A stretch of 19,107 nucleotides of DNA from positions 1 to 19,107 of the forward strand of contig JAHQWW010000072.1 in assembly GCA_029856365.1 (NCBI GenBank), given 5' to 3'. The DNA is from Candidatus Hodarchaeota archaeon. GTDB taxonomy: Archaea; Asgardarchaeota; Heimdallarchaeia; Hodarchaeales; Hodarchaeaceae. The position numbers and the translations under genes were made by a program. Of the stretch, positions 13,129 through 15,973 are shown in pieces (positions within the stretch are counted from its first letter, which is position 1; each line of letters starts with the position of its first letter). Below the pieces are notes generated by a model. That model was given only the letters and a program-made list of their open reading frames with translations. It was not told where the DNA came from and made no database searches.

Positions 13129-15973
13129 ATGGATAATGAACCAAACGTCTCCTCTAGTCAAATAAAATATGTATATATCACTCCTCATACTCACTGGGAC
13201 ATGTGGCCTCACTCGTGAGTTCACACCCAATAGAGAGTGGTATTTACCCTTTCAGAAGTTTCGATACAAATTAGTGAAATTAATTGATGAACTATTAGAT
13301 ATCTTGAACAATCAAACCTTTTATTTCACATTTGATGGTCAAACGATCATACTAGAAGACTATCTTGAAATTCGTCCTGAAAAGAAGGAAGAGTTATTAC
13401 AATTTATTAGAGAGGGAAAAATAGCAGTAGGGCCATGGTATTTACTACCTGATATATGGTTAGTAGGCCAAGAGAGCCTTATTAGGAATCTAGAATATAG
13501 TTATAATTTGGCAAAAGAACTGAATATCCCTCTTATGCAACTAGGCTATCTTCCAGATATGTTTGGTCATTCACGTGTTATCCCTCAACTAATTGGAGAT
13601 TTAACAAATTTTAGAACAGTAATGGTTTGGCGGGGCGTACCACCTGATATAACTACTGTTCCATTTACTTGGAAAAGTGATATTTCAGCTTCAACTTCAA
13701 TTTTAGCGATATACCTTCCTTTTGGTTATGGAAACGCTGCGATGCTTCCCGAGGAAACAGATAAATTAACTGATGAAATTATGGAGCTTGTAGAACAACT
13801 ACAACCCTACTCACCTTTACCAGTATACTTATTACATAATGGAACCGACCATCAATTTCCTAATCCAATAATAGCGACTAATCTTTCTCTAGTTGAATTA
13901 AAAAACATGGATATCTCTTTGTCTGTCTTAAATGATTATGTTCTAAAGCTTCAGGAGTTAATAGACCACAATGAATATTCTCCTCCTGAATTTGTTGGAG
14001 AATTGAGATCCGCAGCACGAGCTCATTTACTACAGGATACGTACTCCTCACGTATATGGATCAAACAATGGAATCAAAAGATAGAGGACATTTTAGTCAA
14101 TTATGCAGAACCATTGAATGCTTATACTTGGTATTATCTTAATGATAACTATCCTACTTCTTTTCTGTCTCAAGCGTGGAAATGGCACCTACGCAATCAA
14201 CCCCATGATTCTATCTGTGGTTGTTCAATAGACCAGACTCATGAAGAGATGCGATTCCGTTATTATTGGGCAGAATCTATTACAGAAATGACCATTGAAA
14301 ACGCAATTTCTACTCTTAATGATACATCACAACCCTCAATTAAACATTCATGTCTTGGATTTAATCCAACAAACTGTTCAAAACCTATTGGTATTGTATT
14401 TAATATTCCAGGGGATATTCAGGTTCAGTCTCTCAAAATACAAGATCAAGAATATGAAGTGCAACCTTTACAATCTTCCACCGATGTTGTTTGGGAGATG
14501 ACTTTAGGAGGGTTTAAACTTCGAACATTAATGAAAATGCTCCCAGGGAGGCGACTTATGAATTATTATGTTAATAAAGCTTCATTAATGGAGGGAACTG
14601 ATCCAGAGATCTGTGAGGTTCATATGATAGTTGGTGATAAACCAGAAGGAGAACTTGACATGAGGGAAACGAAGAAAAAACTCTTAAAAGTGATTGATAG
14701 TAAAAAATTCAAGAAATTTCACATTCTAGTCACTAAAGAGTACGAACAAAGCTACTTTACATGGGCTCCCATGAAACCTTGGAGTTTCACAAAGTTAGAG
14801 ATTTTAGATTCATCCCCAGAAAAATCAGCTTCTAAACTTTTAACCGCTTCTAAAGATTACGTGAGTAATGATTTTTATGATTTAACTTTTAATAGAGATG
14901 GTACCTTTGATGTTAAAGACAAGTCTAATGATATATCCTATAGTAACTTGCATCAGTTCGAAGATTGGGGAGATCGGGGAGATGAATATACATTTGGTCG
15001 TCTTGGTCCAGAGTTCGTTAAAGTAAAGGAATTAAAAAGGACTATTACATTATCTGGGCCTTTAGTATGTGAGATTCAACAGAAAATAATATTGGAAGTC
15101 TTCCAACAAGTCGACGAGTCCAGAGAGAAACGTATTGGCAAAAGAAAGATGCAAATAAATACATCTTTCAGATTCTACCGCGATTCCCCCCAAATTGACA
15201 TAAAAACAACGTTAGTTAACGTTACTAAGGATCACAGGTTAAGAATATGCTTTGATCTCCCTTTTAAGGCTGATCATACCTATACTTCCACTCATTTCGG
15301 ATACATAAAAAGATCAAGCTATCCTGTTGGTGATGAAACTTATATAGAGAAACCGTCAGGGATCCAACCCCAAAAACGGTACATTCGAATAAATGATCAG
15401 GAAGGTCATCTGGCATTTTCTCTTATGAATAAAGGTTTACCAGAGGTTGAATTGGAAAATGGAAGGCGTCTTGCTTTAACTCTGATACGTTCAATCGGTT
15501 GGCTTTCACGCTCTGGGATTCCTGAGAGGCCCGAACATGCTGGTCCAGGAATATCCACTCCAGGAGCTCAAGAGCTCAATAAAACATACACATTTGAATA
15601 TAGTCTTGTAATTCATTCAAAGAAGGATCCATTTTGGTATATTGAAGATTATTCAGAGACATTTTCATTACACCCAATAATAACCCATTTCCCTTTAAAA
15701 ACTCCACGCACTAATGTGCTGAAACCTTTGATTCAAGTACTAAATCCTAATATCAGAATATCTTCATTACGAGTACGTGAGAAAAAATTGTGTGTAACAA
15801 TGTTTAATTTGATAAGTGAAATTGTTTCAACTAAGATTAAATTTCCATCAAAGGCTTTTAAATGCACTCAGATCAAATTAGATGGTTCAATAAAAGAAGA
15901 AAATAAGTTAATAGAAAGTTCAATAACTTTATCTTTTGAACCACACGAAATAAAGGTTTGTATTCTTGAATAA
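13129..15973 (+). CDS. Glycoside hydrolase family 38 (alpha-mannosidase / MngB-like), spliced: join(13129..13200,13232..15973), 937 aa
   Basis: Exon 1 MDNEPNVSSSQIKYVYITPHTHWD plus exon 2 REWYLPF gives the GH38 HxHxD-REWY motif. Also FDGQT, GPWY, nucleophile PDMFGH and QPHDSICGCS. Confidence 0.92.
13201..13231 (+). other. 31-nt bulge-helix-bulge (archaeal tRNA-type) intron in a protein-coding gene
   Basis: Central helix UGGG(13195-98)/CCCA(13226-29), 3-nt bulges ACA and AUA, intron hairpin UGUG../..CACA, exon helix ACUCAC/GAGAGU. Cleavage after the second bulge nucleotide gives GAC|AGA and restores the frame. Confidence 0.88.

Follow-up and report, generated by a model that had tools for sequence, protein, structure and literature searches.

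A probable tRNA-type bulge-helix-bulge intron in the mRNA of a GH38 glycosidase gene of Hodarchaeales

Genes and reading frames at the GH38 locus

The window, that is, the whole stretch of 19,107 nucleotides analysed here, is contig JAHQWW010000072.1 of a Candidatus Hodarchaeota archaeon, and it makes up an entire 19.1-kb contig (C85) of the 4.24-Mb, 35% G+C assembly that we call G000. We show that it carries a gene for an alpha-mannosidase of glycoside hydrolase family GH38 whose conserved motif is interrupted, between HTHWD and REWY, by 31 nucleotides (3n+1, and therefore frame-breaking). This split had been noticed in a first-pass annotation made from the letters of the DNA, with coordinates that turned out to be exact. 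The elements of the gene, all on the forward strand, are as follows:

13129..13200 (+), exon 1 of the GH38 alpha-mannosidase gene, from ATG 13129 to GAC 13200, 24 codons: MDNEPNVSSSQIKYVYITPHTHWD
13169..13171 (+), false ATG of the public gene calls, in the frame of exon 2; 934-residue product without HTHWD
13201..13231 (+), 31-nt intron, present in a single copy in G000
13232..15973 (+), exon 2 of the GH38 gene, REWYLPF..., 913 codons and a stop
GAC (..13200) joined to AGA (13232..) (+), predicted spliced junction: cactgggacagagagtgg

The translation of exon 1 ends in ...YITPHTHWD at 13200, which places the H-x-H-x-D metal-binding motif at its 3' end, and reading on in the same frame meets a TGA at 13216-13218, five codons past the end of the exon. 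Exon 2 encodes a product of 913 amino acids with the Pfam N, middle and C domains of GH38, the match to the N-domain profile beginning at position 13 of 270; exon 1 alone (24 amino acids) and the false N-terminus give no Pfam match, both segments being too short. In the GH38 family, the His and Asp of the motif are metal ligands of the active site. The motif, of the type HTHWDREWY (H-x-H-W-D-R-E-W-Y), is contiguous near the N-terminus in the solved bacterial GH38 structures 3LVT, 5KBP and 2WYH.

The first-pass annotation had also predicted that gene callers would hide the interruption by choosing the ATG at 13169, and public records confirm it: the exact 934-amino-acid product from this ATG is present in public protein collections, as is its counterpart MFX1285918.1 from a related genome, G007. 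Such genes are thus miscalled in databases, where the catalytic motif is missing from an incorrectly assigned N-terminus. A 760-nt spacer precedes the GH38 gene, which has its strand to itself. Divergent from it lies a gene for a DUF72 protein with a C-terminal zinc ribbon (11330-12367, reverse strand), which adjoins one for an XPB/ERCC3-like helicase (8931-11021, reverse strand).

Fold of the insert and its conservation among relatives

The minimum-energy fold of positions 13185-13247 takes the form of a bulge-helix-bulge (BHB), in which exon and intron strands pair as follows:

13189..13194 (+), outer exon-exon helix, 5' strand, ACUCAC in the strict register; His-Thr-His codons
13195..13198 (+), central BHB helix, exon strand UGGG; invariant Trp-Asp codons
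13199..13201 (+), 5' bulge A-C^A; predicted cut 13200/13201
13202..13225 (+), intron hairpin (inner helix h'), UGUGG/UCACA and CUCA/UGAG with loop CUCG; full form UGUGG-C-CUCA-cucg-UGAG-U-UCACA
13226..13229 (+), central BHB helix, intron strand CCCA; CUCA or CUCG in relatives, with pairing always kept
13230..13232 (+), 3' bulge A-U^A; predicted cut 13231/13232
13233..13240 (+), outer helix, 3' strand, Arg-Glu-Trp codons: GAGAGUGG

The inner helix comprises 5+4 pairs and the outer helix (h) 7 pairs in its lowest-energy register or 6 in the strict one, so that both have at least 2 bp. In the lowest-energy register, 13185-88 and 13190-92 are paired, which leaves A13193 and C13194 without partners across from AUA, as a 2x3 internal loop. 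Adopting the strict register (a C13194-G13233 pair and an A-A mismatch followed by 4-5 pairs) comes at a price of 1.5 kcal/mol here and 0.4-5 kcal/mol in relatives, and the three informative outer-helix changes among relatives agree better with the looser register. At the 5' site, all constrained folds give a clean ACA bulge. We therefore class the BHB as strict at its 5' splice site but relaxed at its 3' one. The earlier description of a textbook BHB stands for the 4-bp UGGG/CCCA helix, the 3-nt bulge at the 5' site and the intron hairpin, but not for the 3' site, which is looser than it implied.

A cut after the second nucleotide of each bulge, the rule of the archaeal splicing endonuclease EndA that the first-pass annotation had applied, yields GAC/AGA and hence HTHWD/REWY, identical to the uninterrupted sequence in G017 and other intronless orthologues. 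The same rule reproduces the canonical 37/38 junction of the tRNA-Gly(UCC) intron of G000, which validates its use in this genome. The geometry of the GH38 motif equals or betters that of the tRNA introns of G000 itself, several of which have poorer motifs. BHB geometry at least this good occurs in 8e-6 of all site-and-length pairs in G000, and only 2-3 splice positions are able to restore the protein motif; chance is therefore an unlikely explanation.

We searched for orthologues in 41 related genomes, in a scan of approximately 186,000 species genomes and in a metagenome pattern scan. A homologous 31-nt insert lies at exactly the same site in ten distinct sequences, from eight genomes (one of them with two alleles) and the metagenome contig SDBT01000016.1. 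The eight genomes, all in one genus, are among 24 Hodarchaeales genomes examined, and the insert appears independently in assemblies from several studies. At some 50 other orthologue loci the motif is uninterrupted, as HTHWDREWY or a close variant of it; their hosts belong to the same genus, to other Heimdallarchaeia, to Thor- and Sigynarchaeia, to Bathyarchaeota and to bacteria.

The ten inserts are mutually homologous, with a mean column identity of 87%, and the fold is largely retained. Although its intron strand has undergone C/U and A/G changes, every one of the 36 cells that the central helix occupies in nine aligned sequences is paired, and so is the helix in the tenth. In G019 the distal stem of the hairpin has been wholly swapped and yet remains paired (AUUC/GAAU), and the two alleles of G004 differ by a G to A change that gives a G-U pair in one and an A-U pair in the other. 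Two compensatory pairs fall in the hairpin and one in the outer helix. Seven of the ten sequences share the same lowest-energy fold, and the other three reach it within 0.9-5.5 kcal/mol. The alignment of orthologues that the first-pass annotation had proposed thus reveals presence and absence of the intron, a preserved fold and a few covarying pairs. The two alleles of G004, a metagenome-assembled genome, are of the intron-bearing 5' end (C201:13543-13599 and C341:57-113) and suggest two strains or a duplicated fragment.

Selection, loss and alternative explanations

Both exons bear the marks of a functional gene. In all seven full intron-bearing loci, exon 1 is an ATG-started frame that ends in PHTHWD, with only synonymous changes in its last codons. 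For exon 2, the ratio of nonsynonymous to synonymous substitution (dN/dS) is 0.16, 0.13 and 0.09 between intron bearers and 0.16 and 0.155 between intron-bearing and intronless genes; as the values are alike in both comparisons, the interrupted genes are under the same constraint as the uninterrupted ones, and this across divergences that bring synonymous sites close to saturation. The intron itself has diverged at 13-19% of positions, as against 41-70% at synonymous sites, and this 3-4 times slower change indicates that it too is constrained.

In a maximum likelihood protein tree (quick search, midpoint-rooted), intron bearers are paraphyletic inside the genus, with the topology (G012 intron,(G009 none,(G014 intron, G017 none))) at supports of 99-100. 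The nested intronless genes read exactly HTHWDREWY, each loss having removed precisely the 31 nt predicted by the BHB rule. Since the inserts are homologous and the intronless lineages nested, we conclude that there was one gain followed by at least two exact losses, or three if G010/G005 is counted. A search for an RVT_1 reverse transcriptase gave no match in G000, G009, G017, G010 or G005, though the intron was lost exactly in at least two lineages; gene conversion by an intronless allele is an alternative route of exact loss. No other copy of the intron or of its flanks occurs in the G000 genome, which leaves the idea of a mobile element unsupported.

The genome also encodes a two-subunit (alpha-beta) EndA and the ligase RtcB:

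G000 contig C38, 1474-2025 (-), EndA alpha, 183 amino acids, with the Tyr/His/Lys triad
G000 contig C152, 1222-1854 (+), EndA beta, 210 amino acids, matching structural units and without the triad His
G000 contig C46, RtcB RNA ligase

The best match of the alpha subunit is the Aeropyrum pernix enzyme (3P1Z_B, E 1.6e-42), and its nearest counterparts are the catalytic alpha subunits from Aeropyrum, Sulfolobus and Pyrobaculum; one stretch of it aligns with the Crenarchaea-specific loop region of A. pernix EndA. Asgard EndA has been described as being of the alpha-beta type, with a loop that confers broad specificity (PMC5829648, PMC6379350), and enzymes of the type found in G000 accept relaxed motifs (PMC5829648).

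The conserved site, length and fold of the insert, the intact exons under selection, the exact nested losses and the presence of genes for both enzymes collectively support an intron of the EndA/RtcB type. We consider it very probable that the GH38 insert is a tRNA-type intron excised from the mRNA by EndA and RtcB, with one origin in one genus of Hodarchaeales and at least two exact losses; the earlier proposal of such an intron in a metabolic mRNA of an Asgard archaeon is thus borne out by comparative evidence. In the mechanism we propose, the H-T-H-W-D codons of the transcript would pair with the R-E-W codons (outer helix) and with the 3' end of the intron (central helix UGGG/CCCA), while the hairpin of the intron would provide the inner helix. 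The heterotetrameric alpha-beta EndA would then cut after the second nucleotide of each 3-nt bulge, and RtcB would join GAC to AGA, restoring HTHWD-REWY and an enzyme of 937 residues. Translation of an unspliced message would end after 29 residues, and initiation anywhere further downstream would leave the protein without its His and Asp metal ligands.

Several observations weigh against excision by EndA and RtcB. In the lowest-energy fold the 3' site is an internal loop without a strict 3-nt bulge, and the strict 3' register is held by a single closing C-G pair beside an A-A or A-G mismatch. The stability of the window fold is unexceptional against shuffles (z = -1.4). The lowest-energy fold differs in three of the ten sequences (G007, G021 and SDBT), and covariation is thin: the ten sequences are related, compensatory pairs number 2-3, and the observed values are attained by 10-47 of 500 shuffles. 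Finally, we infer cleavage and ligation themselves from comparative evidence.

The comparative data demand the exact removal of 31 nt and are silent on the enzyme, and the lack of a strict bulge at the 3' site might point to a different one. It is nevertheless quite improbable that the 31 nt leave the mRNA by a route other than EndA, whether through another endonuclease with RtcB or another ligase or through an RNA-editing/excision pathway: the required cuts fall exactly at the positions set by the EndA rule, which also accounts for the tRNA-Gly 37/38 junction, neither the 4-bp helix nor the 5' bulge varies in form, and the EndA of G000 is of a type that tolerates relaxed motifs. We see even less of a chance that the insert is retained, either in an insertion pseudogene or in a gene translated from a downstream start, for instance ATG 13169, into a truncated protein. 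Public gene calls do use this ATG, and starts in the exon-2 frame exist in several relatives as well (ATG in G000, G007 and G012; TTG in G011 and G004), but G014 and G021 have no ATG, GTG or TTG in that frame, and G021 also has a stop in it inside the insert, which excludes a downstream start as a general solution. A protein so begun would miss two GH38 metal ligands of a motif that is contiguous in all three solved structures. Retention is also hard to reconcile with an exon 1 that is open, ATG-started and protein-conserved in every copy, with a dN/dS of exon 2 that is the same as in intronless lineages at divergences with nearly saturated synonymous sites, and with an insert seen independently in the assemblies of several studies.

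Every insert contains a stop in the exon-1 frame. A stop codon soon after the take-off point and a hairpin inside the gap are also what the ribosome would meet if it skipped the 31 nt by translational bypassing or frameshifting of the phage T4 gene 60 type. To this we give the slimmest chance: the take-off and landing codons are unmatched (GAC or GAT before the gap; AAT, AAC or AAA as its last three bases), the conserved features are the exon-intron pairings that define a BHB and include no bypass signal, and nested lineages have lost precisely these 31 nt from their genomes, as would be expected of an excised intron. Other classes of intron were rejected. A HAC1/XBP1-type Ire1 intron is incompatible with splice sites in 3-nt single-stranded stretches flanking a 4-bp helix, the 7-nt hairpin loops being absent, and a self-splicing group I or group II intron would require a catalytic core of hundreds of nucleotides where the insert has 31. 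A search of 12700-13500 against Rfam returned no family match.

A further probable intron in G000 and comparison with known systems

The first-pass annotation had expected more such introns in this lineage, and the genome of G000 bears this out weakly, with one further case:

G000 contig C111, 156-184, ATG at 230 (-), 29-nt BHB insert in a gene for a small (Rab/Arf-like) GTPase; exon 2 runs off the contig end

This intron follows codon 15 and separates FKIT from the P-loop, a 5'-proximal position that recalls the GH38 intron. Its fold has UCAC/GUGA as central helix, AGA as 5' bulge and a 9-bp stem capped by an AAAA loop; the 3' site is relaxed, again as in GH38, and predicted removal of the 29 nt restores FKIT-VIGDGAVGKTS. 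Nothing else emerged from a partial, homology-checked census, in which 41,570 BHB-shaped, frame-breaking candidates were compared with G009 (2.0 Mb), G038 (0.8 Mb) and G000 paralogues; such a census misses introns shared with relatives and genes at contig ends, and the GTPase intron escaped its filter because the gene runs off its contig. A strong match on each side of the junction was confined to GH38, the positive control (51/51). Of the other matches in the G038 comparison we inspected the best four, two of which were also found against G009 or G000, and these have normal unspliced N-termini; the rest of the census matches either had one weakly matching flank or corresponded to the own open reading frame of the gene.

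Two further searches covered the same ground. A genome-wide scan for BHB geometry at open-reading-frame junctions, of the kind that the first-pass annotation had suggested for apparent frameshifts, rested on geometry and reading frame alone: 4449 and 1416 matches stand against approximately 3980 and 1260 in displaced controls, and with so high a background no candidates could be named. Broken genes were also sought without regard to structure, by tblastn of 2568 open reading frames from 2.0 Mb of G009 against G000 and a step to rescue short terminal exons; among 1621 G009-G000 gene pairs this found some frameshift-like breaks of 1-2 nt and a few longer gaps, none with BHB geometry. We conclude that mRNA BHB introns are real but rare in G000. 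Several genes on contigs C122, C188, C154, C19 and C18 align to their G009 orthologues only across frame changes of 1-2 nt, which may be assembly errors, pseudogenes or recoding.

In the whole G000 assembly, ARAGORN calls only 12 tRNAs, seven of them with introns, a low count that fits many hidden multi-intron tRNA genes. The tRNA introns measure 19-41 nt, bar one ARAGORN call of 84 nt. Among the calls is one at G000:C32:26888-26997 with the anticodon CUA ('Pyl') and a 35-nt intron with a 9-bp intron stem.

Hodarchaeales are the archaeal lineage placed closest to eukaryotes, and excision of the GH38 intron as proposed here would mean that tRNA-splicing enzymes also process mRNA in archaea closely related to eukaryotes. 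It would extend protein-spliced (BHB) mRNA introns to an ordinary metabolic enzyme in this order, with an evolutionary record that is unusually clean, including a single origin, long retention under selection and repeated exact loss, and it provides a concrete candidate substrate for the Asgard EndA and RtcB. It is tempting to go further and suppose that the tRNA-splicing enzymes of Hodarchaeales routinely act on mRNAs, with an intron turnover through gain and exact loss like that of eukaryotes, and that the 5'-proximal introns of GH38 and the GTPase form a regulated switch resembling HAC1/XBP1. We regard this as unlikely. If it were true, the mannosidase would be made only when splicing by EndA and RtcB outruns translation of the unspliced message.

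The parallel with XBP1/HAC1 drawn in the first-pass annotation holds as a conceptual one, and nothing here shows regulated splicing. What HAC1/XBP1 and the GH38 intron would have in common is the non-spliceosomal, protein-catalysed excision of a short, frame-shifting intron, with joining by a tRNA ligase (RtcB in animals). HAC1/XBP1 splicing is regulated by stress, and Ire1 cuts two 7-nt hairpin loops, in contrast to the 3-nt stretches around a 4-bp helix that hold the GH38 sites. Closer to home are the archaeal tRNA BHB introns, including those of intron-rich Asgard tRNA genes (PMC11291895; bioRxiv 10.64898/2026.10.13.758758), with which the GH38 intron has motif, cut rule and size class in common and on which the same enzymes would act; the host RNA of the GH38 intron is instead an mRNA. 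Within the literature searched, the papers on Asgard tRNA introns make no mention of introns in protein genes.

The earlier statement that archaeal mRNA introns are known from very few genes, chiefly cbf5, agrees with the literature searched, in which EndA-dependent mRNA splicing is described only for cbf5 of Crenarchaeota and HVO_1309 of Haloferax (PMC2738675, PMC10485636). As predicted for GH38, the HVO_1309 mRNA of Haloferax volcanii is an archaeal message processed at a BHB, and it is cut by EndA (PMC7714728; PMC10485636), but the gene is different and its euryarchaeal host has an enzyme of the alpha2 type (PMC10485636). The intron of the cbf5 pre-mRNA, found in Desulfurococcales and Sulfolobales (PMC2738675, PMC10485636), offers the nearest likeness. 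In both cbf5 and GH38, a short BHB-type intron within the coding sequence interrupts a catalytic motif, so that an active enzyme needs splicing; in both, the motif is relaxed, the host has a heterotetrameric alpha-beta EndA, and a patchy distribution is explained by gain and secondary exact loss. The two differ in that one gene encodes an RNA-modification enzyme of Crenarchaeota and the other a glycoside hydrolase of Asgard archaea (Hodarchaeales), their sequences are unrelated, and the GH38 intron, unlike that of cbf5, lies 72 nt from the start codon. Splicing of cbf5 has been shown experimentally, whereas that of GH38 is deduced from comparison among genomes. On this evidence, we assign the GH38 intron, as a predicted member, to the cbf5-type class of archaeal pre-mRNA BHB introns.

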